DNA from: an uncultured virus (IMG/VR IMGVR_UViG_3300033520_000026)
Taxonomy: Duplodnaviria; Heunggongvirae; Uroviricota; Caudoviricetes
IMG/VR virus record: IMGVR_UViG_3300033520_000026
Location: 62,001 to 126,000 of that record
Reading direction: 5' to 3' (one strand)
DNA: 64,000 bases
The notes under the pieces are model-generated. The model had not been told where the DNA came from, ran no database searches, and was given only the letters and a program-made list of their open reading frames with translations. The translations under genes were made by a program, and so were the position numbers. Each line of letters begins with the position of its first letter. The stretch's first letter is position 1. Below are positions 26,840-62,114 of the stretch, one piece after another.

Positions 26840-26898
26840 TTGACGAACCATTTGCTATCGGTTAGGTTTGGCGAGCGATGCCTGGCATGATGTTGGGC
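26840..26898 (+). promoter_or_regulatory. Sigma70-type promoter plus 5' GAU hairpin
   Basis: TTGACG-17-TAGGTT; GAT GCCTGGC ATGAT GTTGGGC. Confidence 0.7.
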
Positions 26899-26924
26899 TG
26901 ATACACAAGGAATCAGGTGAAGTC

Positions 26925-27149
26925 ATGAGTGACGAGAGCACTGGAGAGAAGGCGGCCAAGGCTGCGGCAGCGGGTGCGGCGGGCGCAGCGGCGGGGTACG
27001 GCGTGGTTGCGGCCACGGGAATGACAGCGGTTGGTATGATGGGCGGTGGCGCGGGTATTGGTGCGGCGGCTGGGCCGGTTGGGGCGGCAGCCGGGGCCTT
27101 GTTTGGCCTGGCGAGTTACGGTCTCTATCGGTTGTTCGACAGCGATTGA
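26925..27149 (+). CDS. Glycine-zipper small membrane protein
   Basis: GxxxG/Ala-rich. Confidence 0.55.
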   Translation: MSDESTGEKAAKAAAAGAAGAAAGYGVVAATGMTAVGMMGGGAGIGAAAGPVGAAAGALFGLASYGLYRLFDSD

Positions 27150-27159
27150 GAGGTCACGG

Positions 27160-27771
27160 ATGGCGCGACGTTTGAAGCATGTGCAGACAGATCAGTTGGA
27201 CATCTTTGCACCTGCACCGCCTCCTCCAAAGCCGATTGTGACGGTGCCGCAGGAAGTTGTGCAGGAGCCACCTAAACCTGAACCATTGCCCATTCGTGCG
27301 GCGTTGCCAGAGTCGATGTTGAACGTGGCTGTTGAGGTTGTAATTCCAGATGTGACAATAGATCCACCTATTGAGACAGTTGCAGATGTGGATTCTGTAG
27401 CGAGTAGTGCTGAGGCCGTGATAGCGATGGCTATCGCACGGTGGGAGACCTTAGTTCACTTGTGGGAGGGTGGTACGCCAGAGGTGTGTTCCCCCTACGT
27501 TGGGAACGCGGAAGGAAATCGCCCGTGGAAGGCGCGTTGGATGTCTACTGCCGATGCCGAGCGCGTGCTTGCGATGGCTCAGTACACATTGCATTGCCAT
27601 CACGAGGGGCCGTTTCCGGGAGGTGGAGGACCACGTCGTGCGAAGGTTTGGAGGCGTGCCGACTCGGACAAGAGGACGTTTGCGGCTCCACTGGCAGTGG
27701 TCGCCGTCGAGTTGGGCGTGCCAGAGCTGTTAGATTCCATCGCCGTGGCCCGTCGGAATCCTGTTCCTTGA
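27160..27771 (+). CDS. Hypothetical protein with Pro-rich N-terminus and QLDIF motif
   Basis: GAGG SD. Confidence 0.55.
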   Translation: MARRLKHVQTDQLDIFAPAPPPPKPIVTVPQEVVQEPPKPEPLPIRAALPESMLNVAVEVVIPDVTIDPPIETVADVDSVASSAEAVIAMAIARWETLVHLWEGGTPEVCSPYVGNAEGNRPWKARWMSTADAERVLAMAQYTLHCHHEGPFPGGGGPRRAKVWRRADSDKRTFAAPLAVVAVELGVPELLDSIAVARRNPVP

Positions 27772-27775
27772 CACG

Positions 27776-27832
27776 TTGACGAACACACGCCAGCGGTTAA
27801 ATTAAGGGCAGATTCCTGGCGTTGATGCCAGG
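27776..27832 (+). promoter_or_regulatory. Sigma70-type promoter plus 5' GAU hairpin
   Basis: TTGACG-16-TAAATT; GAT T CCTGGC GTTGAT GCCAGG. Confidence 0.75.
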
Positions 27833-27855
27833 TGAGGTGGACCAAGGAGAAACAC

Positions 27856-28161
27856 ATGGAAATCAGGAACGAAGCGGATGCGCGGGCATGGGTAGCGGAT
27901 TGGCGGAAAAACGGCGGACTTCGGATCGGCATTCTGAAGGCGGCGATGGACGGGATGTGTACGTGTGTTGGGCTGACCTACAAGACGCCGGACACGCAAG
28001 CGGAGTACCAGGCGGCTATGGTCTACCTGGAAGGTGTGTTGGCCGAGCTGGAGATACAGAGGGAGCAGGCGGCGCGTGATTACGAGCGCATGGAAGAGGC
28101 GAGACAGGACTTGGCTGAGGCCCGGATGGACCGGATCTCGAACGGGTATCGCCACTGGTAG
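27856..28161 (+). CDS. Hypothetical protein
   Basis: AAGGAG SD. Confidence 0.6.
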   Translation: MEIRNEADARAWVADWRKNGGLRIGILKAAMDGMCTCVGLTYKTPDTQAEYQAAMVYLEGVLAELEIQREQAARDYERMEEARQDLAEARMDRISNGYRHW

Positions 28162-28173
28162 GAGAGGAACGTC

Positions 28174-29058
28174 ATGAGAGATCCATTTGAAGGCGTGATT
28201 CAGCCGGGCCAGTCGGGCTGGTACTGGCACGAGGGCCGCGTGATCGAGGTGGTGCGGCATGAGGACGGGACGTTGTGGGTGTTCTGGCGGGTCGAGGGGA
28301 AGGATCCCCGGTTGGACTTCCCGACCGGCCCCCGGTGCGTGGAGCCCGAGGAAGACAAGGCCCGCAGGGATCTCAATACGAAGCTACAAGGACTGCTGCA
28401 ACAGAGCGAACAGGACAAAAACATTGCAGAGTTGCGGGTCCGGCTCAGGACGACGGCTCAAGTGCTTATCGAAGCTGTTGGAGCCGAGGGACCGTGCGAT
28501 GCGGAAGACGCGGCGGCTCGTGCCGTTGAGCATCTTGAAAAGATGACGGAAGCGCGGGATGCGCTAGCGGCCAAGGCCAGGCGGTGGCAGGAGGAGTACG
28601 ATCATCTCAAGGGGCTGTGGAATGAGGCGGCTACCGTAGCCAGGAAGAATTGCCCGACTGCGCTTGGCGAGGACTATCTCATACATGGCGTGCCTCGGCT
28701 GGCGTCGCTACTGAAGGATGCGCAGATCGAGAACGAGCGGCTCCAGGGGAAGCTAGATGCGGAGAAGGCTTACTACGCCTGCCTCCAGGGGGAGTTCAAT
28801 CGGGCGGTGGCGTTGGCGCAGGAGCACTGTCCCAAGCCGGAGTTGGGGCAGTCCTGGTTGATGGCGGGCATCCCCTTGTTGGCCCAGCGGGCGGCGGCGC
28901 TAGAGGCCGAGGTTGAGCGGCTCAAGGCCCACACCTGGAAGCAGGAGCGAGCAGCGATTGTGGCGTGGCTAAGAAATGATAAACGCGGCATGAGAACATG
29001 GGCAGGGTGTATCGAGCGCGGTGAGCACTGGCCCACGGAGGGAGGGGAGAAGCCATGA
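28174..29058 (+). CDS. Mosaic coiled-coil protein
   Basis: Shares modules with 29267..29491 and 30056..30607. Confidence 0.65.
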   Translation: MRDPFEGVIQPGQSGWYWHEGRVIEVVRHEDGTLWVFWRVEGKDPRLDFPTGPRCVEPEEDKARRDLNTKLQGLLQQSEQDKNIAELRVRLRTTAQVLIEAVGAEGPCDAEDAAARAVEHLEKMTEARDALAAKARRWQEEYDHLKGLWNEAATVARKNCPTALGEDYLIHGVPRLASLLKDAQIENERLQGKLDAEKAYYACLQGEFNRAVALAQEHCPKPELGQSWLMAGIPLLAQRAAALEAEVERLKAHTWKQERAAIVAWLRNDKRGMRTWAGCIERGEHWPTEGGEKP

Positions 29059-29270
29059 GCACAATAGATAGAAACGACCTGGGGAAGATAGTCGCACTCG
29101 CATTGATGTTCATTGCAGTTGTATTTTCTATGGGAGTCCTTGTTCACGATCTCGCTTCGGCAAATACGGATAACCAGGCTCTTAAGCTAGAAGTAGATCA
29201 GCTAAACCAAGATTTAGTGGACTGCAATATCAATCTGCGTGGTGCACTGCTGCCCAAGGAGGAGCCATGA
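29055..29270 (+). CDS. Small TM + coiled-coil protein
   Basis: QDLVDC.I.LRGA shared with 30604..30945. Confidence 0.6.
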   Translation: MSTIDRNDLGKIVALALMFIAVVFSMGVLVHDLASANTDNQALKLEVDQLNQDLVDCNINLRGALLPKEEP

Positions 29271-29491
29271 CCGAAGTCGATGATTTGCGAAAAGAGAACG
29301 ATGTCCTTGAGGCCGAGGTAGAGCGGCTCAAGACGCACACCTGGGAGCAGGAGCGAGCGGCGATTGTGGCGTGGCTAACAAAAAGGTATGAAAACACTAG
29401 TTATTTAGAGGTAGTGCGCATTGTAACAAAACAGTTCGCAGAAATGATAGAGCGCGGCGAGCACTGGCCCACGGAGGAAGGAAAACTATGA
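29267..29491 (+). CDS. Small protein duplicating the C-terminus of 28174..29058
   Basis: EAEVERLK.HTW.QERAAIVAWL...IERGEHWPTE. Confidence 0.6.
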   Translation: MTEVDDLRKENDVLEAEVERLKTHTWEQERAAIVAWLTKRYENTSYLEVVRIVTKQFAEMIERGEHWPTEEGKL

Positions 29492-29685
29492 CACCAGAAC
29501 AGCGAGTGGCGTATGTCAATGCGCAGGTGGCGGCGGCGTTGATCGAGATGGAGGCCATGAAGGCGGCGAACAGGGAGCGGGAGGCGCACGGGTACGCCCT
29601 GGCGTGGGACGAGGGGGCGTTCATGAGTTTGATCTCGAAGTACGGGTTGGACGGGAACACGATTATCAAGCTGTTTCAAGACTGA
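29488..29685 (+). CDS. Hypothetical protein
   Basis: ATGA overlap. Confidence 0.55.
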   Translation: MTPEQRVAYVNAQVAAALIEMEAMKAANREREAHGYALAWDEGAFMSLISKYGLDGNTIIKLFQD

Positions 29686-29696
29686 TCGGAGGAACT

Positions 29697-31448: not shown

Positions 31449-31450
31449 CC

Positions 31451-32474: not shown

Positions 32475-32507
32475 CGTTTGTCAACAGTTGAGTTTTGTTG
32501 ACAAACG
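32475..32507. promoter_or_regulatory. Perfect 12-bp inverted repeat containing back-to-back TTGACAAACG elements
   Basis: CGTTTGTCAACA-9 nt-TGTTGACAAACG; a third TTGACAAACG at 32542. Confidence 0.7.
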
Positions 32508-33755: not shown

Positions 33756-33836
33756 ACGGGGTAGTTTCGTGGCATTAGACGAAGTGGAATTGATCGGTTG
33801 AACAACCTTGTTGGCAGGTGATATAGAAGCGTGGGC

Positions 33837-33874
33837 AAAAAAAAGGCCGTCCAGTGAGGCAAACCGGACGGCCT
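33837..33874 (-). terminator. Minus-strand intrinsic terminator-like hairpin
   Basis: A8 run overlapping AGGCCGTCC...GGACGGCCT stem. Confidence 0.55.
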
Positions 33875-33887
33875 AAAACGAAAGGAC

Positions 33888-35684
33888 GTGACGTGCATGG
33901 ATAGCAATGGAACCAGTTTGAGGCAAGAGGGAACGAACAAGGGCAGTGCGAAACTGGCGGAGCGGATCGTCGATACGTTGAATCTGGGGCAGTACGGCGT
34001 CACGTACCGTGTGGAGGACGGCCAGCGCTGGTGGAACCTGCGGGAGCTGTTGCAGCATCTCGGGTACACTACCTACTATAGGCCGCCGCATGTGGAGGGA
34101 GATCACAAGCGGTTCTTCGTCGTCGAGACGAACAGAGGGGAGAAGTTCTGTCTTCACCTGTCTGACTCGGGCATCATCCAGTTCTTGGCGCGGTCGGACA
34201 AGGTGAGCGCTCGATCCCTCCGGGACCAGATCGTGGCAGCCCAGGTGGTCTTTCCGCAGACACCATCCGAGCCCATTCGGCAGGTGACTCCGAGACCAGT
34301 ACCACAGGAGACCGCTGAACCAGTAGCGCCACGGACAGCCGCATCCGCGAAGGTTCTCGATCCCGTCGATTTCCATGGGCAGCGGTTGACTATCGTGGAT
34401 CGGGAGGGGGAACCCTATGTGGCGATGCGGTATATTGTCGAGGGGATGGGGTTGGACTGGAAGGCTCAGCATGCGAAGTTGACCAGCAACAATAGTCGTT
34501 TCTGCGTGGTAATGATTCGGATGAAGCCTTGGGGGGATTCGCAAGTGCGCGAAGTTACGTGCATTCCATTGCGAAAGCTGGCCGGATGGCTGTTCACCTT
34601 GCAACCGTCTCGGATCAACCTGTTCGTCGCCGACAAGGTGCGGAGGTACCAGGACGAGTGCGAGGGTGTACTCCAGTCGGCCTGGTCTCGATATGTTGCG
34701 AAACAGACACCTGTGAGCAACGACGCCTCAACAACACTGCAATCATTGTCGTTTGAGGACCATCCAGTGCGGATTCAGATGATCGATGGAGAACCGTGGT
34801 GGGTGGCGAAGGATGTCGCGGAGATGCTGGGGTATATCTGGAATGGAACCGAGTGCATCAAACACGTTCCTGAAAAATGGAGGGGGGTCAGATCCGTCCT
34901 GACCCCCTCTGGAAACCAACAAATGGCTTTGTTATCCGAGCAGGGGCTGTACTGGTTCCTGGCGCGTTCCGATAAACCGGCCGCGTTGCCCTTCCAGGAA
35001 TGGGTTGCAGGGGACGTGATCCCATCCATCCGGCGCACGGGGCGCTACAGTGCGATCCCAGAAGATCCAACGAGGATAGGGTTACCGGATTTCACTGATC
35101 CCATCGCAGCGGCGGAGGGGTGGTTGGCCGAGGCCAAGGGTCGGCGCAAGGCTGAGATCGAGGCACGAGCGGCCAAGGAACGGGCGCACCTCCTCGCGGC
35201 CAAGCTGGTGGAGGACGCCCCATTGGTGGACTTCGCGGAGCGCATGGAGGCGTCCCCAACGACGCATCTGGTTGGGGCCGTGGCCAAGATGATCCAGCAG
35301 GGCACGGGGCTGTCGATGGGGCAGAACCGGCTGTTCGAGTGGTTGCGCGAGAACCGCTACCTTCATCAGACGGGGAGCCGCACGAATCAGCCGACCCAGC
35401 GCAGCCTGGACCATGGCTGGTTCGTGTTGCAGGTGCGAAATGTGGAGATCCGGGATGAGACCCGCGTGAAGTACACGACCCGCGTCACGGGCAAGGGGCT
35501 CATGCACTTCTACGAGCAGTTCTACCGGACGGCCATCGAGCTGGGGCTCAAGCCGCGAGTGCGACCGGATCTAGTTACGTCGGCGGAGGTGTTGCGCCAA
35601 CTGCCACTTTGGGCCGACGAGGACAGCGACCGAGTGGACGAGGATCTGATCAAGGAGGCCAAGCGGCTGGATCCGAAGCCCTAG
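33888..35684 (+). CDS. Multidomain antirepressor: P22AR-N-like + BRO-N + KilA-C (ANT)
   Basis: VDFHG...PYVAMR.IVEGMGLDW..Q; second BRO-N; GQNRLFEWLR...PTQRS...TRVTGKG. Confidence 0.85.
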   Translation: MTCMDSNGTSLRQEGTNKGSAKLAERIVDTLNLGQYGVTYRVEDGQRWWNLRELLQHLGYTTYYRPPHVEGDHKRFFVVETNRGEKFCLHLSDSGIIQFLARSDKVSARSLRDQIVAAQVVFPQTPSEPIRQVTPRPVPQETAEPVAPRTAASAKVLDPVDFHGQRLTIVDREGEPYVAMRYIVEGMGLDWKAQHAKLTSNNSRFCVVMIRMKPWGDSQVREVTCIPLRKLAGWLFTLQPSRINLFVADKVRRYQDECEGVLQSAWSRYVAKQTPVSNDASTTLQSLSFEDHPVRIQMIDGEPWWVAKDVAEMLGYIWNGTECIKHVPEKWRGVRSVLTPSGNQQMALLSEQGLYWFLARSDKPAALPFQEWVAGDVIPSIRRTGRYSAIPEDPTRIGLPDFTDPIAAAEGWLAEAKGRRKAEIEARAAKERAHLLAAKLVEDAPLVDFAERMEASPTTHLVGAVAKMIQQGTGLSMGQNRLFEWLRENRYLHQTGSRTNQPTQRSLDHGWFVLQVRNVEIRDETRVKYTTRVTGKGLMHFYEQFYRTAIELGLKPRVRPDLVTSAEVLRQLPLWADEDSDRVDEDLIKEAKRLDPKP

Positions 35685-35689: not shown

Positions 35690-35721
35690 GTCTGGAAGTC
35701 TGGAAGTCTGGAAGTCTGGAC
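35690..35721. repeat. 8-bp tandem repeat, (GTCTGGAA)x3 + GTCTGGAC
   Basis: Direct reading. Confidence 0.9.
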
Positions 35722-35734
35722 GTTTGGGATGGAC

Positions 35735-35750
35735 GCGAACCCGGGTTCGT
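35735..35750. repeat. Dispersed palindrome copy 10, GCGAACCCGGGTTCGT
   Basis: 3 nt upstream of TTGACA. Confidence 0.95.
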
Positions 35751-35753: not shown

Positions 35754-35813
35754 TTGACAAACGCGGATCGGGTGGCTAGATTGAGAGGCAAGATGGCGGG
35801 CGCGATGCTCGTC
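35754..35813 (+). promoter_or_regulatory. Sigma70-type promoter plus 5' GAU hairpin
   Basis: TTGACA-17-TAGATT; GAT GGCGGGC GCGAT GCTCGTC. Confidence 0.75.
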
Positions 35814-35824
35814 GGGAGGTGTCC

Positions 35825-36109
35825 ATGGAAATCAAGAAGCTCAACCGCGTTGATGACGAACCTTTGCGCCAAGCGATCCTCGACGAGATCATGCAGGCGA
35901 TCACGGTCCGCGTGGTCGCTGGGGTGGTCCATCTTGAGTCCCTGCGTGGTCTGGCCACGGTGGCGACTGCTGGCAGCATCGTGACCATAGAGTACAAGGG
36001 CAAGGCGTCGGGGGTGGCGTACCAGTTCTGGATGGACAAGGAACACGCCTCCGTTCGGGCGCTCGGGGCGCAGTTGCGTCGCCTCCGGGACGCGCAACGG
36101 GCGGCATAG
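35825..36109 (+). CDS. Hypothetical protein
   Basis: GGAGG SD. Confidence 0.6.
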   Translation: MEIKKLNRVDDEPLRQAILDEIMQAITVRVVAGVVHLESLRGLATVATAGSIVTIEYKGKASGVAYQFWMDKEHASVRALGAQLRRLRDAQRAA

Positions 36110-39025: not shown

Positions 39026-39041
39026 ACGAACCTGGGTTCGC
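39026..39041. repeat. Dispersed palindrome copy 11, ACGAACCTGGGTTCGC
   Basis: Right after TGA, upstream of promoter. Confidence 0.95.
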
Positions 39042-39055: not shown

Positions 39056-39122
39056 TTGACAAACGCGACAGGCTGGTTAAATTCATAGGCGAGGGCGAGA
39101 TGCCTGGCAACGGATGCCGGGT
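39056..39122 (+). promoter_or_regulatory. Sigma70-type promoter plus 5' GAU hairpin
   Basis: TTGACA-16-TAAATT; GAT GCCTGGC AACGGAT GCCGGGT. Confidence 0.75.
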
Positions 39123-39137
39123 GCCCAAGGAGGAACC

Positions 39138-39554
39138 ATGTTCATGCACGCCTGCAAGCCGAACTCGAAGCGCGATGCCAGCAAGGACCGCAACGGCAAC
39201 TCCAACATCGTCGCTCTCTTCCGCCGCACGCGGAAGGGCCAGAAGCAGGTCGCCAGCGGCCATGAGCTTGGCGTCGAGGGCGTGAACGGATCGGACTACT
39301 ACGAGTTCCGCCTCGGCTCGGACGGCGTGCTCTACTGCTCGTGCCAGGACTACAAGTTCCGTGGCCACCGCTGGAACAGAGAGCACGCGAGCCACTACGC
39401 GTGCAAGCACATCGTCGTGGCGCTCGAACACTTCGGGGCGATGGCCCAGCGCGGCATCTCGATGGACTCGGAGATGATCGTGTACAAGCCGGAAGTGCTT
39501 GTCGCCGAGGCCGCTCGACTTGCCGCCGCCGTTTCCGCCGCGAGGACCGCATGA
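39138..39554 (+). CDS. SWIM zinc-finger protein
   Basis: YCSCQD...ACKH. Confidence 0.75.
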   Translation: MFMHACKPNSKRDASKDRNGNSNIVALFRRTRKGQKQVASGHELGVEGVNGSDYYEFRLGSDGVLYCSCQDYKFRGHRWNREHASHYACKHIVVALEHFGAMAQRGISMDSEMIVYKPEVLVAEAARLAAAVSAARTA

Positions 39555-39702: not shown

Positions 39703-40125
39703 ATGACCGGGCCAGAGCGCTGCCCCATTTGCGGGGATGCCCTTGAGGCTGGTCGGACCGTGGGGATCGGTGGCTGGAAGGTCTGTACCCATCATTGGGT
39801 ACGGATCATGCCCAGCAAGTACGCCTCGCGCTGCCACGAGTGCCTCGGTCCAATCCTGCCCGGCGAGGAGATCGTGTTGTCGAAGGACAATAAGGACTCG
39901 CGGTGGGTGGTGTTCCACCGGAAGGACCGCTGCGATGGTGCTATGCAGGTGGCTCCGAACGCGCCGAGTGGACCGTGGGCTGTCCTGTACCTCGTGCCAG
40001 GGGCTCCGCCCGAGGTCATCAAGGCTGTGTACCGGGCGCTCTCCCAGAAGTACCACCCTGATCGCGGAGGGGACGTGGTGAAGATGCAGGAACTCAATGC
40101 GGCCATGGCCGCGCTGATCAAGTAG
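39703..40125 (+). CDS. Zn-finger + C-terminal J-domain (DnaJ-like) protein
   Basis: IKAVYRALSQKYHPDRGG...MQELNAA. Confidence 0.8.
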   Translation: MTGPERCPICGDALEAGRTVGIGGWKVCTHHWVRIMPSKYASRCHECLGPILPGEEIVLSKDNKDSRWVVFHRKDRCDGAMQVAPNAPSGPWAVLYLVPGAPPEVIKAVYRALSQKYHPDRGGDVVKMQELNAAMAALIK

Positions 40126-41522: not shown

Positions 41523-41562
41523 CAAACGACAATCAATATGTAGGATGCGAACCTGGGTTCGC
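41519..41562 (+). promoter_or_regulatory. Promoter TTGACA-16-TAGGAT with palindrome copy 12 (41547-41562) over the predicted start site
   Basis: GCGAACCTGGGTTCGC abuts the -10 box. Confidence 0.8.
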
Positions 41563-41806: not shown

Positions 41807-42004
41807 ATGGGACTCCTGGAAGCCTTTGGATTGGCGGAGGAAGTCGGGTCGCGGGCGTTGACGTTTGACGAGCTTTTGTTTATGGCGGACGCACGCAAGC
41901 GCAAGGGCTGCAAGACGGTCCAGCGCCAGTTGAAGGCAGAAGAGATCCAGCGCGTGCTGGAGTTGGGCCGCAAGTGCGCGGCGTATAAGGAGATGACTCG
42001 ATGA
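41807..42004 (+). CDS. Hypothetical protein
   Basis: Overlaps groES start. Confidence 0.45.
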   Translation: MGLLEAFGLAEEVGSRALTFDELLFMADARKRKGCKTVQRQLKAEEIQRVLELGRKCAAYKEMTR

Positions 42005-42279
42005 AACCAGTTGCTATGCTCGGTTCCTACATCCTGACCCAGAGGGACAAGCCCGAGGAGAAGCGCAGTCCAGGCGGGATCGTAATGCCTGCGCAGGCGT
42101 CGGCCAATCCGACTTGGGCGAACGTCTTGGCGGTGGGTGACGCGGTAGGAACCAAGGTCATGGTCGGAGACCGTATCCTCGTGAGCAAGTTTGCGGGTGC
42201 TGATGTCATGGTTGGTGAGGAGCAGTGCTTCGTCGTGCGCCTGGACGATGTGTACGGAGTCCAACGCCAGGCTGATTGA
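42001..42279 (+). CDS. groES: Co-chaperonin GroES (Cpn10)
   Basis: EKRSPGGIVMP...VLAVG...VGDRILVSKFAG...DDVYGV. Confidence 0.85.
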   Translation: MKPVAMLGSYILTQRDKPEEKRSPGGIVMPAQASANPTWANVLAVGDAVGTKVMVGDRILVSKFAGADVMVGEEQCFVVRLDDVYGVQRQAD

Positions 42280-42333
42280 CAAATTTACTGTAGGCATTAA
42301 ATTTGCCAGTGATGCCGGACGAGGATGTTCGGC
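42276..42333 (+). promoter_or_regulatory. Sigma70-type promoter plus 5' GAU hairpin
   Basis: TTGACA-16-TAAATT; GAT GCCGGAC GAGGAT GTTCGGC. Confidence 0.75.
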
Positions 42334-42345
42334 GGGAGTGAGAAA

Positions 42346-42645
42346 ATGATCGACTACATGCACATCATCAATGGTTTCAAGGCGTCGCTCGCGTTGGAGT
42401 TTGAGCGGTTTGAGGATCAACAGCACCTCGATGGCTCTGACTTGGATCGCATGGCGGTCGTGAGCGCACAGATTTCGATCCTCAACAGCGTCCACTCGGC
42501 GATGCTCCATGCGGAGAACGTCGAGTTGGATCGTCAGTACCTCGCGCATCGGTCAGGGATCGCAGTTGCCGAAGCAATTCGTGGATTTGACGGCGAGGAT
42601 GAGTCTGTCACTCAACCAATGGAAAGAGGTGGCGATCATGCGTAG
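42346..42645 (+). CDS. Hypothetical protein
   Basis: GGAG SD. Confidence 0.55.
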   Translation: MIDYMHIINGFKASLALEFERFEDQQHLDGSDLDRMAVVSAQISILNSVHSAMLHAENVELDRQYLAHRSGIAVAEAIRGFDGEDESVTQPMERGGDHA

Positions 42646-43315
42646 GATTTTTTGGGCACTGGTGTTGATGGCTGGGTGCTCTGATCCGACAAGGGCATTC
42701 TCGGACGATCCCGACGAGTCGGCGACTGTGACCGTTTCGGAAAAGGAGACTGAAGCGACCCAGGATGAGACGGACGAGACTGTTTCTGAGACGGCGGGGT
42801 CTGCTTCTGAGACGGGCTCTGGCTCGGGTAGCGCCACCGTCGATACGGGGTCGGCGACGGCGGAGACGGGGAGTGGAACAGTGGATTCGGATACGGTTCC
42901 TGACTGCTGGCTTTCGTGCATGTCGTTGAAGAGCGAGTGCCAGCTTGGGTCGGTGGTCATTGGTCGCTGCCCAAATGCGGCATGGTGTTGCGAGCCCAAG
43001 GCTGTGGACACTGGGACAGTGTCAACGGACACGTTGCCTTCATGCTCTGGAACATGTTCCAACTGGAGCGGATGCGCGGGAGATTGGCACAAAATCCATG
43101 GTTCCTGTCCTAACGGGAAGGCTTGCTGCGAAGAGGATTCCGATACGGGCAGCGCGACGGTGGACACGGATACGAATCCTGAGCCATGCCCGCAGGGAGA
43201 TCCAAAGTACATTTGTGAGCGGCGTGGCCTATGTACTACCTCGTATGGATACGAGGACACAGACTACTATTGTACAGATCCTGTTAATTGGGCATGTTGT
43301 CGTAAACTCTACTGA
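42638..43315 (+). CDS. Lipoprotein with S/T/D-rich linkers and three Cys-rich repeats
   Basis: Lipobox-like LMAG-C; repeats ending in CC. Confidence 0.7.
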   Translation: MRRIFWALVLMAGCSDPTRAFSDDPDESATVTVSEKETEATQDETDETVSETAGSASETGSGSGSATVDTGSATAETGSGTVDSDTVPDCWLSCMSLKSECQLGSVVIGRCPNAAWCCEPKAVDTGTVSTDTLPSCSGTCSNWSGCAGDWHKIHGSCPNGKACCEEDSDTGSATVDTDTNPEPCPQGDPKYICERRGLCTTSYGYEDTDYYCTDPVNWACCRKLY

Positions 43316-43467
43316 TTCCGAATGCGATATTCGGGAGGTTGCCATGTTGAAGACGCAAGAAGACGAACGATTGGAGAGAGAATCAGCGATTGCATATCGC
43401 CTATCCTGGGCTGCATCCTTTGGGATGATTTTGATAGCAATATTTGCAAGGTGTTGCGAGGCATAGC

Positions 43468-43809: not shown

Positions 43810-44240
43810 GCCGTGAGTACCGGATCTGGGTGCGGGCCGAGGTGGTGAACCGTGAGGATGCCCTGGACATCGAGGAGGCAGTTGGGGAGATTTGGCCGAT
43901 GCAGGATGACCATGGCGACGATGGGATGCCTCAGAGGGGTACAGTGTATCGGGTGAGCTTATGCGGGGACGGGGCTCTGACTGGAGGTTTGACGCTTGAT
44001 ATGCTAGCCAGGCAGATCCAGAGGAAGATCTGGACGCGCGTTCAGAAGTACGTCGATGTGTCTGTGTCTGGTGTGTGCTTGGAGCCTGACGAGTATGTTG
44101 AGAGTTGTGTGTTGGATTTCGAGAGAGACCGGGATGCCAAGCTGTTGGACATGGAATGCTGTGATTGTGGAGATTGCGTCCCGTTTGGGTCTGAGGGAAT
44201 ACGGTGTGCGATATGCGAACGAGGAGGAATAGATGGATGA
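43806..44240 (+). CDS. Hypothetical protein with C-terminal Cys cluster
   Basis: ATGA overlap. Confidence 0.55.
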   Translation: MSREYRIWVRAEVVNREDALDIEEAVGEIWPMQDDHGDDGMPQRGTVYRVSLCGDGALTGGLTLDMLARQIQRKIWTRVQKYVDVSVSGVCLEPDEYVESCVLDFERDRDAKLLDMECCDCGDCVPFGSEGIRCAICERGGIDG

Positions 44241-44538
44241 TCATGCGGCATATGGGAAGTGTTCAGGGTGTAGGAAATGGGTGCTGCGGGATGAGGTTCT
44301 GAGCATCCATACAGATATTTACGATGCGAGCAATCGAAGGCGGGTGATTCGGCAGCGGTACTGCCTGCCATGTTTCGAGTTGGAGGTGAAGCGGTTGGAA
44401 GGAAGAGAGTGGGACCACATGGTCGTTGGAGGGCATATCTTGGCTCCTATGCCAGATGGATCTATGCCTTCGGATGAAGAGATACGGGAGCGCATGCGTG
44501 CCGGTGGAGCGGTTGACAAACGATCTGGTAACGAATAG
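44233..44538 (+). CDS. Zn-binding hypothetical protein
   Basis: CSGC...CLPC. Confidence 0.55.
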   Translation: MDDHAAYGKCSGCRKWVLRDEVLSIHTDIYDASNRRRVIRQRYCLPCFELEVKRLEGREWDHMVVGGHILAPMPDGSMPSDEEIRERMRAGGAVDKRSGNE

Positions 44539-44574
44539 GGTGCGGTGTTCAAGATCGTTCGCAAGATGCGAGCG
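44513..44574 (+). promoter_or_regulatory. Sigma70-type promoter plus 5' GAU hairpin
   Basis: TTGACA-17-TAGGGT; GAT CGTTCGC AAGAT GCGAGCG. Confidence 0.7.
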
Positions 44575-44587
44575 CAAGGAGGGAGCG

Positions 44588-44974
44588 ATGCGACAGCCCA
44601 AGGTGACTGGTTACGACGGAAGGCACGACAAGTTTATACCCGACGACCATGGCGGCGGCACGGTAGAGTGGCAGCCCGGGGACGGCACGCGTTACCTGAT
44701 TGTGGCCAAGGTGCTGGACGAGGCTGAAGCGCGGATACACGGGGCGATTCCTGGGTCTAGGATCGTGTCTGTGGGTCCGGGCGGGGCCTGGTGGCTGACG
44801 ATGATCGTGATCCCTTGGGCGTGCCATCATATAAGCTATGTGGCGGAGTATGCCCGTGATCGGAAGATGAGTGACTACACGCTGTTGGCATGTACGGCGT
44901 TGATGAACCTTGCATTGGGTGACGAGGCGTATGGTATCGAATTGTTTGAGGAGATGATAAAGGGGAGGGGATAG
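44588..44974 (+). CDS. Hypothetical protein, paralog of 51957..52391
   Basis: VEWQPGDGTRY versus VVWEPGTGARY. Confidence 0.55.
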   Translation: MRQPKVTGYDGRHDKFIPDDHGGGTVEWQPGDGTRYLIVAKVLDEAEARIHGAIPGSRIVSVGPGGAWWLTMIVIPWACHHISYVAEYARDRKMSDYTLLACTALMNLALGDEAYGIELFEEMIKGRG

Positions 44975-49065: not shown

Positions 49066-49130
49066 TTGACGAACGCGGTTGGAGGTAGCAAATTCTCACT
49101 AGGCGAGAGAACCTGGCCGCAGATGGCCAG
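49066..49130 (+). promoter_or_regulatory. Sigma70-type promoter plus 5' hairpin
   Basis: TTGACG-17-CAAATT; GAA C CTGGCC GCAGAT GGCCAG. Confidence 0.65.
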
Positions 49131-49149
49131 TAGCTGAAGGAGAGTCATC

Positions 49150-49458
49150 ATGTGTTTTACCCCGACCCAAGTATACGAAATGGCTTGTTATACGTCTTTG
49201 TGGGCTGACGAAGATCCTTCGCGTTGCGGTTGTAGGGGTCGTGGTTGGATGTTGTCGGACGTGGATACGTGGCATCAGTGCCCGGCCCACGGCCGTGGCG
49301 TGATGCACCCCGAGCAAGCGGAGTACGAGGCGGAGATCCGAGAAGAAGTCGAAGCCGCTGCGAAGGCGGCGGGCCTATCCGTCGAGGCGTATCTGGCTTC
49401 TCTGAAAGTTGCGGAGCCGGTCGCGGTCGTGGTTGAAGACGACGGGATCCCGTTCTGA
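49150..49458 (+). CDS. Small Cys/His protein ending in an SSB-like tail (EDDGIPF)
   Basis: CGC...CPAH; AAGGAG SD. Confidence 0.65.
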   Translation: MCFTPTQVYEMACYTSLWADEDPSRCGCRGRGWMLSDVDTWHQCPAHGRGVMHPEQAEYEAEIREEVEAAAKAAGLSVEAYLASLKVAEPVAVVVEDDGIPF

Positions 49459-51551: not shown

Positions 51552-51884
51552 ATGGGAAAAGTGCGCGTGACGTCCGAGGTCATGGATGCTGCCAAGGAGA
51601 TCGTGTTCATCGTGCGTCACATTGTGGACCATCCTTCCGACGTAGATGTTCGCGTGCGCGGTGGTGAATATCGTCTTGGCCTAGAGCTGTTCACGCATCC
51701 TTCTGACGTTGGCCAGGTGGTGGGTAGGTCGGGTCATCTCACTACGTCACTGCGGTCGTTCCTTTCGGCGTTGGCTGGCAAACATAAGATCAAGATTGAT
51801 TTCGACTACGTGACCGAAGAGGACAACGCTCGTGGTGATAGTGAGCTGAGGCAAGGTTCTCGACCTGTTGCTACCGCGACTTGA
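51552..51884 (+). CDS. khpA: KhpA/YlqC-like KH-domain RNA-binding protein
   Basis: IVDHPSDVDV...HPSDVGQVVGRSG...SLR with GxxG loop. Confidence 0.75.
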   Translation: MGKVRVTSEVMDAAKEIVFIVRHIVDHPSDVDVRVRGGEYRLGLELFTHPSDVGQVVGRSGHLTTSLRSFLSALAGKHKIKIDFDYVTEEDNARGDSELRQGSRPVATAT

Positions 51885-51945
51885 CAAACACGGCCATCTG
51901 GTGAATAACCGCAGGCACAGTTAGATCGCCCGAGCGATTCGGGTG
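51881..51945 (+). promoter_or_regulatory. TTGACAAAC promoter plus 5' GAU hairpin
   Basis: GAT CGCCCGA GCGAT TCGGGTG; -10 box weak. Confidence 0.65.
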
Positions 51946-51956
51946 CGGAGGCACGA

Positions 51957-52391
51957 TTGCTGAACAGGCCGACACAGGGTTCTGTGATCTTTTTCGCTCC
52001 TGGTCCCATTGGGTGCGTCGTTTGGGAGCCTGGCACCGGCGCGCGGTATTTCCTCCAGGCGACGGACGTTGGAGATCGGATTGCGGTGGAACTCGGAGGA
52101 CGGATCATGGTGGCGTTATCGTCGATGTCTGACAACACGTTTGTCGCGCATGCCTTGAATCCGGCAAAGACGGGTCATTGGACGAGGGAGTACGTGCGCA
52201 AGAAATGGCAGAGGATTTATGGGATCGGAGATCACGCGGCGCATTTGGCGATGTTGCTGAATTGGAGCCTTGGCGGAGAGCGTGCGCGGGCCTATGCGGA
52301 CGAGCAGTGGCGACTTGTATGTGGAGAGGACGGAAAGGTGGTGAGCCTACATGAAAGACGTGTTCATCGGAGACAAGGTGGGCACCCCTGA
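51957..52391 (+). CDS. Hypothetical protein
   Basis: GGAGG SD; paralog of 44588..44974. Confidence 0.55.
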   Translation: MLNRPTQGSVIFFAPGPIGCVVWEPGTGARYFLQATDVGDRIAVELGGRIMVALSSMSDNTFVAHALNPAKTGHWTREYVRKKWQRIYGIGDHAAHLAMLLNWSLGGERARAYADEQWRLVCGEDGKVVSLHERRVHRRQGGHP

Positions 52392-53829: not shown

Positions 53830-53840
53830 CGGAGGGGAAT

Positions 53841-56400: not shown

Positions 56401-56406
56401 TCGTCA

Positions 56407-58421: not shown

Positions 58422-58444
58422 TGTGCGCGCATGAGGTGTTCGTC

Positions 58445-59014
58445 ATGACGCGTATCGAAACAGGATCTACAGGTGAAAGTTCTGGGGACAGGGATCGGAG
58501 CGAGTACCAGAAACAATATTATCTGGACAGGAAAGAGGCGATTTCCAAGGAGCGGAAGCGTCGATACCGCGAGGATCCCGAGTACCGCGAGTCGATCTTG
58601 GATCGGGTCAGCGACTACCGAAACAAGAAGCAGGAGAATATCAATAAGTTGCGGGCAGAGGGGAAGTTGCCGCCGTCGCATCCGAGGGGGCCACGTCCGC
58701 CGATGAAGGTCAAGGTGAACGGGGTCAGCACCATTGTGTACACGGTGGGTCGCATGGCGGTGGAGTTGAATCGGTCCAAGGACGTGATCAATTACTGGAC
58801 GCGGATCGGGCTCCTACCGCCGACACCATATCGTTCTGCAAGTGGAGACCGGCTTTACACAGAGAGCATGGCCATAGTGGTAAAAATCGCCGTTGGCAAG
58901 CGTGGGCGAGTTTCGGCCAGCGACCGAGAATTTACGCGAGAGATTCGGCAAGGTTGGGAGGGCTTAGGCGTGGTCATTCCGGTTCACGTTGACAAAACGT
59001 TCATACGGCGGTAA
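58445..59014 (+). CDS. MerR-like HTH DNA-binding protein
   Basis: YTVGRMAVELNRSKDVINYW...GLLP...GDRLYT. Confidence 0.65.
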   Translation: MTRIETGSTGESSGDRDRSEYQKQYYLDRKEAISKERKRRYREDPEYRESILDRVSDYRNKKQENINKLRAEGKLPPSHPRGPRPPMKVKVNGVSTIVYTVGRMAVELNRSKDVINYWTRIGLLPPTPYRSASGDRLYTESMAIVVKIAVGKRGRVSASDREFTREIRQGWEGLGVVIPVHVDKTFIRR

Positions 59015-59052
59015 TTTTGCGCGCACATAGAAGTGCGGCGTTGATGCCGCAT
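58989..59052 (+). promoter_or_regulatory. Sigma70-type promoter plus 5' hairpin
   Basis: TTGACA-17-TAATTT; GAA GTGCGGC GTTGAT GCCGCAT. Confidence 0.75.
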
Positions 59053-59066
59053 TGGAGGCGCGAAAT

Positions 59067-59600
59067 ATGAAAACTCAAGGAAACGAACGCATGACGCGGA
59101 CCTATAACGTGGTCGGCGCACAGGAGCAACCAATGACAGACATTAGTCGGCCCTATGGCCCGGTTGTCGATCAACAAGACAGCCCAATGGTGGAGGTGAC
59201 CTATGCAGCGGGGCGCACGGTATCGCTGGGCAACTATGAATTTGTGCGCATCCAGATCGGTGCGCGGGTGCGGATTGCGGACCTTGGCAAGGTTGACGAG
59301 GCTTTCATTGGCGTGCAGCAGTTCGTGGATGCCGTGATTAACAGAGAGGAATCGTTGGTTCGCAAGCAGCCGGTGTCATCGGATCCGTTGCCTACATTAG
59401 ATGGCGTGCGACGTGAGATCTGGGTGGAGTACGGCATGACCTTGAACGCAAAGGTGAAGTTCGAGAGTTTCAAGGTTGATCTTGGTTTATCGCGTCCGTT
59501 GGGCGATTCAGAGGACGCTGATGCCGCTATGGTGGCGTTGGAGTCGTACTTGTCTCAGAGGATCGACACTGAGCGGGGTCGCATACGGGGAGAGGCATGA
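59067..59600 (+). CDS. Hypothetical protein with two tandem related domains
   Basis: GRTVSLGNYEFVRI versus GMTLNAKVKFESFKV. Confidence 0.6.
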   Translation: MKTQGNERMTRTYNVVGAQEQPMTDISRPYGPVVDQQDSPMVEVTYAAGRTVSLGNYEFVRIQIGARVRIADLGKVDEAFIGVQQFVDAVINREESLVRKQPVSSDPLPTLDGVRREIWVEYGMTLNAKVKFESFKVDLGLSRPLGDSEDADAAMVALESYLSQRIDTERGRIRGEA

Positions 59601-60844
59601 TAGGAATCAGAGCACGCAATCTCGCCAATCTACGAAACAAGGTCAACACGAAGTACGGCGACCGGACGATTGACATGGCGAGTCGTTTGCAGCCGTTGAA
59701 TTGTCCGCGTGTGACGACGGGAAGCTTGAGCTTCGACTATGTGCTCGGTGGGGGTATCCCGGTGGGCCATGTTTTGATCTATCACGGCGGAGAGAGCAGC
59801 GGGAAGACCACCCATGCAGTGCGCTCTGCCGGGAGTTTTCAGAGGGTGTGCGCCAACTGCTATCGGCGTGTGATGGGTGGCTTGGAGTTGGAGGAAGTGG
59901 TGGACAAGGAGACGGGCGAGGTCGATCTGTCCCAAATAGGATACTGCGATTGCGTGAATGCGGGTCTGTTCGTGCCTGTGCAATTGCAGAAGGAGACAGA
60001 CCAAGAGTTCAAGGCGCGGTTGAAGCGCTATGCGGTGAACTCTTACGAGGAGCCGCGAGTTGCCTATATAGACGTGGAGGGTACGTTTGACAACTCATGG
60101 GCGATAAAGTCGGGCTGCAATCCAGACTTGCTTTTGCTGGCGCGTCCACAGACGGCGGAGGAAGGCATCGACCTGCACGACGAGATCGTGCGCACGGGAG
60201 CGGTGGATTTCATCGTGCTGGACAGCATTGCGGCCATGACTCCGAGCGAAGAGATCACGGCAAGTGCCTCGGATTGGCAACAGGGTCTCGCGGCGAGGCT
60301 CATCAACAAGTTTGCGCGTAAGACTAACTCGTCGAGGAACGCGGTGCGGTCTGATTTTAATAGGAAGATTACCGAGATCTGGATCAACCAGGAACGAGAT
60401 AAAATTGGAGTAACTTGGGGTGATCCGACCGTTTTGCCTTGTGGCAAGGGCCAGAAATTTGCGGCGTCGGTCATCGTGAAGATGTGGGCGAGCAAGTGGG
60501 AGAAGGACACGATAGACGAAGAACTCAAGAAGGAGTGGCATATGGAGATCGGGTCCGAGGTCCACATGAATTACAAGGTCGTGAAGAACAAGACGGGGCC
60601 GGCCATGGGGCAGGGTGGTTTTCGCATGGGGGTGTTTGGGGACGAGGCGGCACAGGTTTTGGATATTGATTACATGTTGGCGCAGGCGGAGAAGTTCGGC
60701 CTGTTCAAGAAAGAGGGCAAGGAGTGGCAGCTCGGAGACGAATCGTACAGGACGAAAACAGAGTTGATAGCGCGGATGTCGGAGCCAGCGGTACGGGACA
60801 CCTTGAGGGCGATCCTTGTGAAGAGGATGATTGCGAGGGTGTAG
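59597..60844 (+). CDS. recA: RecA/UvsX-like recombinase with Cys-rich insertion
   Basis: TGSLSFDYVLGGGIPVG; GGESSGKTT; YIDVE; VLDSIAAM; INQERDKIG; VVKNK. Confidence 0.9.
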   Translation: MIGIRARNLANLRNKVNTKYGDRTIDMASRLQPLNCPRVTTGSLSFDYVLGGGIPVGHVLIYHGGESSGKTTHAVRSAGSFQRVCANCYRRVMGGLELEEVVDKETGEVDLSQIGYCDCVNAGLFVPVQLQKETDQEFKARLKRYAVNSYEEPRVAYIDVEGTFDNSWAIKSGCNPDLLLLARPQTAEEGIDLHDEIVRTGAVDFIVLDSIAAMTPSEEITASASDWQQGLAARLINKFARKTNSSRNAVRSDFNRKITEIWINQERDKIGVTWGDPTVLPCGKGQKFAASVIVKMWASKWEKDTIDEELKKEWHMEIGSEVHMNYKVVKNKTGPAMGQGGFRMGVFGDEAAQVLDIDYMLAQAEKFGLFKKEGKEWQLGDESYRTKTELIARMSEPAVRDTLRAILVKRMIARV

Positions 60845-60860
60845 GCGAACCTGGGTTCGT
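60845..60860. repeat. Dispersed palindrome copy 15, GCGAACCTGGGTTCGT
   Basis: Immediately after recA TAG. Confidence 0.95.
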
Positions 60861-60894
60861 GTCTGGGCATAGTCCGTTCGTGACGAATTGCCAA

Positions 60895-61155
60895 ATGTCC
60901 GAGTTTGGAATTCTCGCGCTGCATCATGAGCACATCAAGATGCTTTCTGTGTTGCCTCGGGTGCCTAGAAATGCCGAGGGTGAATTCGATACTTGGGCAT
61001 GGTCTCGCATGGTGGATTTGCCACAGCGGAGAGTTCGGGAACTATCGCGTGGGTTGATGGACATGGGGGCGATCCTGCTCGATGGGACGATGCCGTCGAT
61101 TGTTTTTGAATATCTGTCAAAATTGGCAAAGGACTGTGTGATCAAGGGGAAGTAG
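60895..61155 (+). CDS. Hypothetical protein (possible wHTH)
   Basis: ORF packing. Confidence 0.45.
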   Translation: MSEFGILALHHEHIKMLSVLPRVPRNAEGEFDTWAWSRMVDLPQRRVRELSRGLMDMGAILLDGTMPSIVFEYLSKLAKDCVIKGK

Positions 61156-61521
61156 GTGTTGTTGATGGCGCGGATTCGACCACGGGTCTTTGAGCAGGGC
61201 GGGCGCACGCCAACCGAGCAGGAGGAGCGGGTGGCGCGAGTGGTTCGTGGGCATCGGCAGCGGGGCAGCGGCGCGTCGATGTATGCCAAAGGGGACGTTT
61301 CCTCAGACCATTTTTTGATCGAGTGCAAGCGCACTGAGCATGCCAGTCTGAGCCTGAAGAAGTCGTGGTTAGACAAGATCTCGCGTGAGGCAGCGGCGGC
61401 GAGCAAAGAGCCAGCGCTGGCCATCGAGATTGCAGGCGGTCCCGATGACGCGCATGGTGAACGCGAGTGGATCATGATCCCCTTGCGATGCTGGAAGAAG
61501 TTGGTTGGAATTACGGAATGA
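61156..61521 (+). CDS. Holliday-junction resolvase-like PD-(D/E)xK nuclease
   Basis: E.RVA...GSGA...KGDV...LIECK.T. Confidence 0.75.
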   Translation: MLLMARIRPRVFEQGGRTPTEQEERVARVVRGHRQRGSGASMYAKGDVSSDHFLIECKRTEHASLSLKKSWLDKISREAAAASKEPALAIEIAGGPDDAHGEREWIMIPLRCWKKLVGITE

Positions 61522-61787
61522 AGTTCAAGACGCCACAGGCTCAGGACGCGTATGCTGAGGTTCTTCGTGAGCTTGGCCAGGTCATAACCGAGGTGCAGTC
61601 GCAGTCCAAGGTTCAGGAGGCGCGGGTGTCCATGGCCGATGCGCCTGCTATTGCGTTGAGCACGGCGTACAAGGTTGGCGAGATGCGCATGAAGGGTCTT
61701 GAAATGGCCTTGCGTGTCGGGACGGAGATCGACATCCAATGGGGGTGCCTCATGGCGCGTTTGACCATGGAGGCGCAGGATGGCTGA
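61518..61787 (+). CDS. Hypothetical protein
   Basis: ATGA overlap. Confidence 0.5.
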   Translation: MKFKTPQAQDAYAEVLRELGQVITEVQSQSKVQEARVSMADAPAIALSTAYKVGEMRMKGLEMALRVGTEIDIQWGCLMARLTMEAQDG

Positions 61788-62061
61788 ATGGATACTCGTA
61801 TCTATGTATATGATATTGCTTGCGGTATGTTTGATGTTGGTCATTATCTTGCCGCTGCTTCGGATGTTCAACGGGCGCGTGGCTAGATGGTGCTGTCGAG
61901 AGTTGGCGTGGCACGATGGGTCGCGGTCTATTTTGGAATTCGACGGGGTCAACGTCCATGCGGAGTGTCGGTTTTGCGGGCGACCTGTGATGATAGACAG
62001 CCAAGGAAATTGGTTTGTGGTAGATGTTGTTTCGGGCGTGGATGAACAAAGTAATTGTTGA
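61780..62061 (+). CDS. Membrane protein with small Cys/His domain
   Basis: N-terminal TM; WH...CRFC...DSQGNWF. Confidence 0.55.
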   Translation: MAEWILVSMYMILLAVCLMLVIILPLLRMFNGRVARWCCRELAWHDGSRSILEFDGVNVHAECRFCGRPVMIDSQGNWFVVDVVSGVDEQSNC

Positions 62062-62114
62062 CAAACTCGCAGTAGGCCGTTAAAAATAGGGTTGATGCCT
62101 GGCGCGATGCCAGG
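62058..62114 (+). promoter_or_regulatory. Sigma70-type promoter plus 5' GAU hairpin
   Basis: TTGACA-17-TAAAAA; GAT G CCTGGC GCGAT GCCAGG. Confidence 0.75.

Follow-up and report, generated by a model that had tools for sequence, protein, structure and literature searches.

Why should a phage place the same small hairpin, on stems of varying sequence, in front of the leading genes of its early operons? The question is raised by a stretch of 64,000 nucleotides (nt), referred to here as the window, which covers positions 62001-126000 of one virus record of 133,113 bp (IMG/VR IMGVR_UViG_3300033520_000026; hereafter G000). In it the initial annotation had listed ten hairpins, each a short distance downstream of a predicted promoter and each with a loop ending in GAT, and had proposed that they constitute an uncharacterized cis-regulatory RNA regulon. 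The present study shows that the element is a covarying hairpin of the RNA strand, which carries invariant GAU letters and adjoins the translation-initiation region of the genes that open early operons. With about a dozen operons so marked, in this phage and in its relatives, the hairpin has the look of a control tag that early messages have in common.

A covarying hairpin with invariant GAU letters

The ten hairpins proved correct in coordinates, arms and loops, and in all ten the first T of TTGAC lies 35-43 nt ahead of the 5′ GA. The list was, however, incomplete. Three further promoter-linked cassettes lie outside the window, one on the + strand near genome position 132,491 and two on the − strand at 29,633 and 28,299, each of the latter oriented with its own − strand gene; together with a promoter-less copy at window position 43314, this brings the total in G000 to 13 promoter-linked copies and one without a promoter. 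The bare pattern (a stem of at least 6 pairs, with G·U allowed, and a loop of 4-8 nt ending in GAT) has 76 instances on the + strand of the genome and another 21 on the − strand. Twelve of these 97 instances are located 37-47 nt past one of ~22 TTGAC[AG]AA sites, where arithmetic from the counts gives an expectation of ~0.1. Because the bare pattern is common on the G/T-rich strand, the case for the element rests on this association and on covariation, not on rarity. The coding strand of G000 carries an excess of G over C (46,609 versus 31,683), and a strong G excess was also found on the coding strand of all seven relatives after orientation, across G+C contents of 51-66%. A first regular expression, which joined hairpin, Shine-Dalgarno (SD) sequence and start codon, found 17 instances in G000 compared with 3.15 in shuffles, stayed near background in the relatives and was replaced by covariance models.

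In an alignment of the 13 promoter-linked copies, 94.5% of the 91 stem cells are paired, compared with 65.0% in shuffles. All seven stem pairs have changed on both sides, the covariation score was reached by none of 500 shuffles, and shifting the 3′ partner by 1-3 columns leaves only 31-46% of cells paired. A covariance model built from these copies, R1, scores them at 25.1-36 bits and finds its next match on either strand of the genome at 12.7 bits, so that it recovers exactly the 13. When the alignment is extended to 46 sequences from six genomes, 88.9% of cells remain paired (59.7% in shuffles), with 80 double-change cells compared with 23.6. The outermost pair is mostly unpaired in relatives, and the conserved stem is therefore one of 6 bp. 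Within the six inner pairs there are 28 G·U cells versus 4 C·A, and of 276 cells the sense strand leaves 8 without a partner, where the antisense strand would leave 32; the preponderance of G·U places the fold on the sense strand. All matches lie in the sense orientation of the adjoining gene, both − strand copies included. Many arm pairs are complementary without being repeats of one another (e.g., CGTTCGC/GCGAGCG and CGCCCGA/TCGGGTG), and the property kept is pairing in one strand, not the sequence of the duplex. The earlier claim of an RNA-type hairpin on the sense strand is thus upheld by both the covariation and the G·U to C·A ratio. Folding energies of the 22-24-nt hairpin cores range from −7.7 to −13.2 kcal/mol, with a mean z of −2.8 relative to mononucleotide shuffles, and energy by itself does not set the hairpins apart. 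Rfam 15 gave no match at gathering threshold anywhere in the window and, at E ≤ 1 over 26000-64000, only an unrelated weak suhB match (33830-33912, − strand), in agreement with the description of the element as uncharacterized.

Conservation of letters is confined to the unpaired parts. In the 46-sequence alignment the 5′ flank reads G in 46, A in 45 and U in 41 sequences (A in 4), with a preceding A in 29; apart from this (A)GAU, columns 1-6 of the flank are variable. The loop ends in G (46/46), A (44/46) and U (46/46) and begins with a purine in 45 of the 46 (G 36, A 9); the closing pair is C-G in 37, and 31 loops are 5 nt long, mostly G-N-G-A-U. Since these counts are inflated by model selection, a model-free survey was made, in which TTGAC[AG]AA[ACT] sites followed by an SD and an open reading frame (ORF) were collected from eight genomes, the leader was folded and the last hairpin with at least 4 pairs was read. 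The loop contains GAU in 56 of 83 such leader hairpins, and a 5′ GA[U/A] lies within 6 nt of the stem in 45 of these 56 versus 10 of the 27 others (Fisher p 1.6e-4, for copies that are not independent). Several GGU-loop variants occur in one relative, G004. The letters fit two readings of the loop: an R·U pair may close a loop of 3-4 nt ending in GA, or G-N-G-A may form a GNRA-like turn with the U left over. Candidate explanations of the letters that were tried and rejected include pairing of the loop GAU with the 3′ tail of 16S rRNA, in which the complementary AUC is on the wrong side of the anti-SD; a K-turn or C/D-box, as the two GA pairs are at opposite ends of the helix; and a Dam/GATC site, as GAT is followed by G or T instead of C.

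Position in early operons and spread through the clade

The element has a regular anatomy. A predicted sigma-70-type promoter, TTGAC[A/G]AAC followed after 16-17 nt by a TAAATT-like −10 hexamer, is separated by 0-12 nt from (A)GAU, which leads into a G+C-rich stem of 6-7 bp, free in sequence and constant in pairing, with C-G closing and a loop of the form R-N(1-3)-G-A-U; in most copies a GGAGG-type SD follows 0-6 nt past the stem, and then the start codon. The word TTGACRAAC occurs 14 times in the window versus 1.12 expected, a number reached by none of 100 shuffles. All 13 promoter-linked copies have TTGAC[AG]AA[ACT] with a predicted −10 (TAAATT, TAGATT, TAATTT and similar) at 16-17 nt, and the 5′ GAU of the G000 copies starts 7-15 nt past this hexamer. 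A generic sigma-70 scan gave no overall enrichment (10 versus 7.5 and 14 versus 9.0 in shuffles) and called five of the ten promoters, and the case for the promoters is therefore based on the repeated 9-mer and its spaced −10.

A survey of position covered 52 matches of at least 22 bits in six genomes. A −35 TTGA[C/T/A] lies 35-48 nt ahead of the 5′ G in 43 of them, with a mode of 36 nt, which is the predicted +1, and in 49 the first letter of an SD-like word falls between −3 and +7 relative to the end of the 3′ arm. Seven of the nine matches that have no promoter at 35-48 nt are intercistronic, with the next SD directly after. In six of these the stop of the preceding ORF lies 4-28 nt ahead of the GAU, which leaves one (L050) where that ORF ends just past the hairpin, and two of the seven, in G003 and G004, are orthologous to each other. 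The window copy at 43314, which at 17.3 bits falls outside the 52, is an eighth intercistronic promoter-less copy. The other two promoter-less matches are within long ORFs, at orthologous positions inside an ORF of ~600 codons (L047:15236-15272 in G003 and L069:14782-14818 in G004; 22-24 bits); with neither promoter nor SD, they may have arisen by chance or mark an internal site. Among the surveyed matches no convincing case of a promoter and hairpin without an SD was found, and the hairpin travels with the SD even where there is no promoter. A terminator scan of the sense strand picked out none of the ten window hairpins, and no T-run follows any of them, the 3′ arms being succeeded by GGAGG-type purine runs instead of a U-run. 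Window promoters that carry the word TTGACAAAC and have no GAU hairpin are located at 32498, 32542, 36948, 41519 and 55343 (+) and at 32484 (−), the sites at 32484 and 32498 being divergent and 14 nt apart; they precede two Bro-N/Ant-type genes, a Dam-like methyltransferase gene and others.

A second element is the palindrome (A)CG-CGAAC-N4-GTTCG-CGT/CCT, which is conserved in sequence and present in 11-30 copies in each of eight clade genomes, compared with ~0.1-0.2 expected. G000 has 25 copies, 15 of them in the window (Table 1). The arms are the same in all genomes and the central 4 nt are genome-specific (CTGG/CCAG in G000; ACGT in G001 and G002; TTGA/TCAA in G004, G006 and G007; TCCA/TGGA in G003), with both orientations about equally frequent. 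The palindromes are found after stop codons, 2-9 nt before an SD (10/25 copies) and at the ends of early operons just before the next TTGACAAAC promoter, and the copy at 41548 replaces the GAU hairpin between promoter and SD. Probably the palindrome serves the cassettes as terminator or attenuator, or else is bound by a protein. Just 5′ of the palindrome and promoter at 35736 and 35754 lies a short tandem repeat, GTCTGGAA, of ~4 copies (~35690-35730).

Relatives were found by a search with the RecA-like protein and by a promoter-plus-arm pattern, with searches for the KH-domain and capsid proteins adding more; they are IMG/VR records of 58-195 kb, plus a 168-kb record that is 98-99% identical. 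Ten of 13 related records, each searched whole, contain the hairpin at E ≤ 0.01 (G001-G005; one match in G006, 12 in G007, one in G008, four in G010 and one in G013), and none was found at this threshold in G009, G011 and G012, all three of which are fragments; G011 and G012 are the only records with ~40% capsid identity. The eight genomes assembled from fetched pieces (G000-G007) span 51-66% G+C, all retain the TTGACAAAC promoter word, and across this span the hairpin is conserved. Its copy number depends on lineage: strong matches number ~10-13 in G000, G002, G003, G004 and G007, a few degenerate ones occur in G001, and the complete G006, with 1-2, has other leader hairpins in their place. 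A 101-aa protein with two CxxC pairs (zinc-ribbon-like; window 44233-44538), whose gene ends ~15 nt ahead of the sixth hairpin, is conserved in G002, G003, G004 and G007; it was considered as a gene that tracks the motif and was rejected on account of a weak homologue in G006 (E 1.9e-4).

The record has 58.8% G+C, with nearly all genes on the + strand. Pfam matches include structural proteins (a T4 Gp23-type major capsid protein, gp19 tail tube, gp25, a T4 baseplate protein and tail sheath) and replication or early proteins (DnaB, DnaC-like, RecA-like, helicase and Dam-like genes). Late and structural genes occupy window positions 1-26000, and early and replication genes 26800-64000, where all ten hairpins first listed are found. 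Searches by megablast and tblastn against 50,697 phage records found no close cultured relative, the best identity being ~31% (RecA-like protein and head protease); hence, judged by its genes, the phage is an uncultured, distantly T4-like myovirus. Pfam and PHROGs scans of ~200 ORFs, about four-fifths of which match no family, recognized no phage RNA polymerase, and the phage appears to depend on that of the host. Among public sequencing runs searched for the phage there were six DNA (metagenome) holders and no RNA holder; the studies that contain its DNA are of sediment and freshwater. The early region also contains an IS605-type TnpB (OrfB_IS605 with a Cas12f-like TNB domain; L005:805-2061, genome 126605-127864, outside the window). 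An attempt to name the host through this protein was abandoned, as its nearest relatives, mostly Chloroflexota metagenome-assembled genomes and Asgard archaea, are just 47-58% identical and thus too distant for more than a weak hint. Other unusual cargo comprises an RF-1-domain (ArfB-like) protein (L005:4930-5391, outside the window; 24.2 bits, under the Pfam cut-off of 35), a GroES homologue, a DnaJ-domain protein (26.6 bits, slightly under its cut-off of 27.8) and a Mom-family/GNAT protein adjoining the capsid gene.

Table 1. Hairpin cassettes and other features, with window positions except where a contig is named; −35, −10 and start codons are predictions
Feature	Position	Strand	−35	Hairpin	Start codon	Score (bits)	Details
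Cassette 1	26840-26927	+	26840, TTGACGAAC	26877-26898, GAT GCCTGGC ATGAT GTTGGGC	26925	25.1 (R1); 19.1 (R2)	weakest copy; SD ~20 nt past stem
Cassette 2	27776-27858	+	27776	27811-27832	27856	32.3	−10 TAAATT; minimum free energy (MFE) fold includes hairpin; promoter scan 9/12
Cassette 3	35754-35827	+	35754	35792-35813	35825	36	best copy; −10 TAGATT; SD GGGAGG touches stem; CGAAC palindrome at 35736 just upstream
Cassette 4	39056-39140	+	39056	39099-39122	39138	27.3	7-nt loop AACGGAT; CGAAC palindrome at 39027
Cassette 5	42276-42348	+	42276, TTGACAAAT	42311-42333	42346	31.7	
Promoter-less intercistronic copy	43314-43346	+		43314-43336, GAT TCCGAAT GCGAT ATTCGGGA	43344 (next gene)	17.3 (E 0.12)	5′ GAT overlaps TGA stop of gene 42638-43315 (ORF stop 1 nt ahead of G); GGAGG overlaps 3′ arm; MFE fold is the hairpin
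Cassette 6	44513-44590	+	44513	44553-44574, CGTTCGC/GCGAGCG	44588	25.6	
Cassette 7	49066-49152	+	49066, TTGACGAAC	49109-49130, 5′ GAA	49150	29.1	
KH-domain protein gene	51552-51884	+					110 aa, KhpA/YlqC-like, PF13083; candidate reader only
Cassette 8	51881-51959	+	51881	51924-51945, CGCCCGA/TCGGGTG	51957 (putative TTG, uncertain)	31.4	GGAGG; MFE favors another fold
Cassette 9	58989-59069	+	58989, TTGACAAAA	59030-59052, 5′ GAA	59067	31	RecA-like gene in operon; orthologous copies in G005 and G002
Cassette 10	62058-62131	+	62058	62094-62114	62129 (methyltransferase)	31.2	GAAGGAG; hairpin identical in two relatives, flanks differing
CGAAC palindromes	1087, 4421, 7093, 10298, 14954, 18836, 26368, 32046, 32592, 35736, 39027, 41548, 51141, 55325, 60846						
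GroES homologue	42001-42276						
DnaJ-domain protein	39703-40122						
Mom-family/GNAT protein	L001:3363-4790						

Readings of the hairpin

The reading that we tentatively prefer, with a probability of roughly 0.45, is that of an RNA operator at the translation-initiation region, read via its GAU motifs. The two invariant single-stranded GAU motifs would be the contacts for a trans-acting reader, most simply an RNA-binding protein encoded by phage or host. Seated flush against the SD, the reader would act as a competitor or a helper of the 30S subunit, or as a shield for the message; the early messages that carry the tag would then have their translation initiation, their decay or both set in common, creating a post-transcriptional early-gene regulon. 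Unpaired letters that stay invariant on a freely drifting stem are a signature of sequence-specific recognition. The initial annotation had named three possible roles: a protein-bound translational switch, a 5′ cap protecting the message and a boxB/nut-like antitermination site. The evidence leans toward a link with translation initiation, because the seven copies that have no promoter are intercistronic and immediately precede the next SD, and away from the other two roles, that of nothing but a 5′ cap and that of a nut-like site, the latter because there is no boxA-like element and the palindromes lie at the ends of early operons, not inside them.

Several observations weigh against the operator reading. 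A tblastn profile of all G000 proteins against seven relatives revealed no gene that tracks hairpin abundance, and the KH protein is the only recognizable candidate for the reader. Six purine-rich 3′ flank columns are contained in both covariance models, R1 and R2, which biases the matches toward SDs. The leaders are so short that nearness to both transcription start site (TSS) and SD is partly forced, the positions scatter about as widely relative to the promoter (35-48 nt) as relative to the SD (−3 to +7), and the TSS positions are themselves predictions from the −10 hexamers alone. Seven of the 20 TTGACAAAC-type promoters in G000 have no hairpin. Whole segments of 5′ untranslated region plus start fold no better than shuffles (z −0.02 to −1.64), and the hairpin is missing from three of 11 leader MFE folds. 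Moreover, the 5-nt loop G-N-G-A-U could be conserved for its folding, as a GNRA-like turn, and not for a protein.

A more specific form of the operator reading names the KH protein as reader. The gene at 51552 does encode such a protein, as had been claimed: PF13083 (KH_KhpA-B) matches at 45.4 bits versus a cut-off of 32.1, and the GXXG loop is intact, being kept as GRSG or GRNG (GKNG in one paralogue) in six of six homologues. The suggestion that it is the ligand gains nothing beyond the fact that this is the only recognizable RNA-binding domain in the Pfam and PHROGs scans, in which no homologue of RegA, RegB or coat proteins was seen either, and the protein does not track hairpin number. 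Its homologues were found in this phage clade only, which makes their co-occurrence with the hairpin uninformative. The complete G006 speaks against strict coupling, as it keeps the KH protein (66% identity) yet has a single hairpin at E ≤ 0.01, a point that also counts against the operator reading as a whole. In the available part of a 2026 preprint on KhpA and KhpB, binding is described as GXXG dependent and no target motif, of GAU type or other, is given. We consider it doubtful that the hairpin is a clade-specific early-message tag read by the phage KhpA-like protein. Were it so, the 5′ (A)GAUG would fit into one GXXG groove and the loop GAUG into another, and the accumulating protein would occupy a site flush with the SD, switching early translation off or protecting the messages. 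Such a timing device would parallel T4 RegA/RegB but be assembled from an unrelated protein and a new RNA motif, and it would provide the first defined sequence-and-structure target for a KhpA-family protein.

The main rival, held to be somewhat unlikely, is a leader hairpin that acts purely in cis and has no dedicated reader, providing 5′-end protection of the RNase E/RppH or RNase J type and keeping the SD free, with GAU conserved for loop folding or as initiation context. Hairpins that stabilize messages from the 5′ terminus are well established, as in ompA and aprE. The mode of the −35 to 5′ G distance coincides with the predicted +1, so that many transcripts would begin at or just before the GAU-hairpin; the stems are stable; and eight of the 11 MFE folds form the hairpin and leave the SD largely unpaired. 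A hairpin beside the SD also seems to be a general design in this phage, as illustrated by the CGAAC palindromes that precede SDs, and G006 swaps in other leader hairpins. However, a bare stabilizer does not need GAU twice, and the coupling of the two motifs in the model-free survey (45/56 versus 10/27) points to recognition. In addition, the predicted 5′ overhangs reach ~12 nt, beyond the few nt that known stabilizers tolerate, and the seven intercistronic copies without promoters are away from any primary 5′ end.

Improbable is an element of the DNA or the cassette as such, either a mobile promoter-hairpin-SD unit of the PeSL type that serves recombination and gene shuffling or a GAT..GAT operator just past the promoter for a regulator that binds DNA. 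The succession of palindrome, early sigma-70-like promoter, stem-loop and SD is as in phages RB49 and phi1, to the extent that the accessible text describes it, yet the stem-loops described there precede the TSS and terminate (PMC2839356), whereas those of the present phage lie after the −10 and none of ten is terminator-like. The cassettes flank mostly small ORFs that vary within the clade, and the consensus arm, GCCNGGC, is self-complementary, so that the consensus also reads as a direct repeat of GATGCCNGGC. But the arms are often complementary without being repeated, a duplex-DNA operator would have no need to retain pairing, and, given the excess of G·U over C·A, the antisense strand would pair far worse.

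Less likely still is a transcription-level RNA signal, whether a boxB/nut-like or put-like antitermination site or a nascent-RNA pause hairpin: although 43 of the 52 matches are promoter-proximal, the short G+C stem with a G-N-G-A-U pentaloop might fold like GNRA with an extra base, in the manner of boxB, and terminator-like CGAAC palindromes are present in the genome, (A)GAU is the only conserved 5′ sequence, sites number 13-14 per genome, one per operon, as opposed to one or two, the early palindromes come before the next promoter and the others are frequent within the late region, which has no GAU hairpins, the intercistronic copies hug the SD in a way that antitermination does not predict, and no Arg-rich N-like protein was evident by eye among the clade-conserved small proteins.

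Comparison with known leader elements

A search of open-access papers and bioRxiv found nothing with the GAU-loop motif, the nearest described elements being the PeSL cassettes. In the portion of the report available for the T4-type phages RB49 and phi1, PeSL stem-loops are placed upstream of, within or just after the promoter, before the start site, often have G4...C4 tracts and no fixed loop letters, and are shown to terminate upstream transcription (PMC2839356). Compared with what is described there, the present elements are likewise repeated intergenic cassettes of a T4-like phage, each with a strong sigma-70-like early promoter, a stem-loop in which G-T/G-U pairs occur and the SD for the gene that follows, and they too cluster among small variable early ORFs. 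The unit contains a promoter, here predicted, and ends at its 3′ side in an SD and start codon. The hairpin, on the other hand, does not lie before the predicted start site; it is inside the predicted transcript, after the −10, has an invariant GAU in both loop and 5′ flank, has no T-run and is also found without a promoter. Here the role of terminator seems to belong to the second element, the CGAAC-N4-GTTCG palindrome, and the GAU hairpin itself lacks the U-run that defines, together with a G+C hairpin, an intrinsic terminator.

Phage translational operators near the SD include the T4 gp43 operator hairpin, the targets of RegA and RegB, and the coat-protein hairpins of MS2 and PP7. The present element resembles them as a small hairpin with specific loop letters in the translation-initiation region, and the proposed regulon would be similar in logic to the RegA/RegB or gp43 operators, many early messages of T4 being shut off together post-transcriptionally. 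It differs in that it has no sequence likeness to them and ends before the SD, thereby excluding both SD and start codon. With boxB/nut of the lambda family it shares a short stem, a purine-rich pentaloop and a place in the nascent leader, but it has no boxA, the scans found no N-like protein, coupling to the SD is tight, and there are an order of magnitude more sites per genome. The 5′-terminal stabilizers of ompA and aprE are comparable as stable hairpins at or near the 5′ end of the message, predicted in the present case; they are not known to have conserved loop letters and need to lie within a few nt of the end, whereas the overhang here is 0-12 nt and some copies are internal. CsrA/RsmA hairpins similarly combine a loop motif with a site that overlaps the SD. 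CsrA, however, needs GGA in the loop, and here the U after GA is invariant and the letter before GA is not constrained to G: alignment column 20, which is that letter in the 31 copies with 5-nt loops, reads C 20, A 13, G 7 and T 6 over the 46 rows.

Post-transcriptional control of phage early genes is understood in detail in only a few model phages. The motif of 20-odd nt described here marks a set of early operons across an uncultured clade of T4-like phages of 130-195 kb, and it offers a testable handle in the form of one small RNA with two invariant triplets and about a dozen natural variants per genome, which could reveal a new RNA-protein pair or a new rule of leader design. Should the KH protein turn out to be the reader, the poorly defined KhpA family would acquire a definite target; even if nothing reads it, the element remains a compact, natural expression cassette made of promoter, hairpin and SD. 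Collectively, these comparisons assign the element to a known kind, the leader hairpin or operator within a promoter-stem-loop-SD cassette, with covariation support that is unusually clean.

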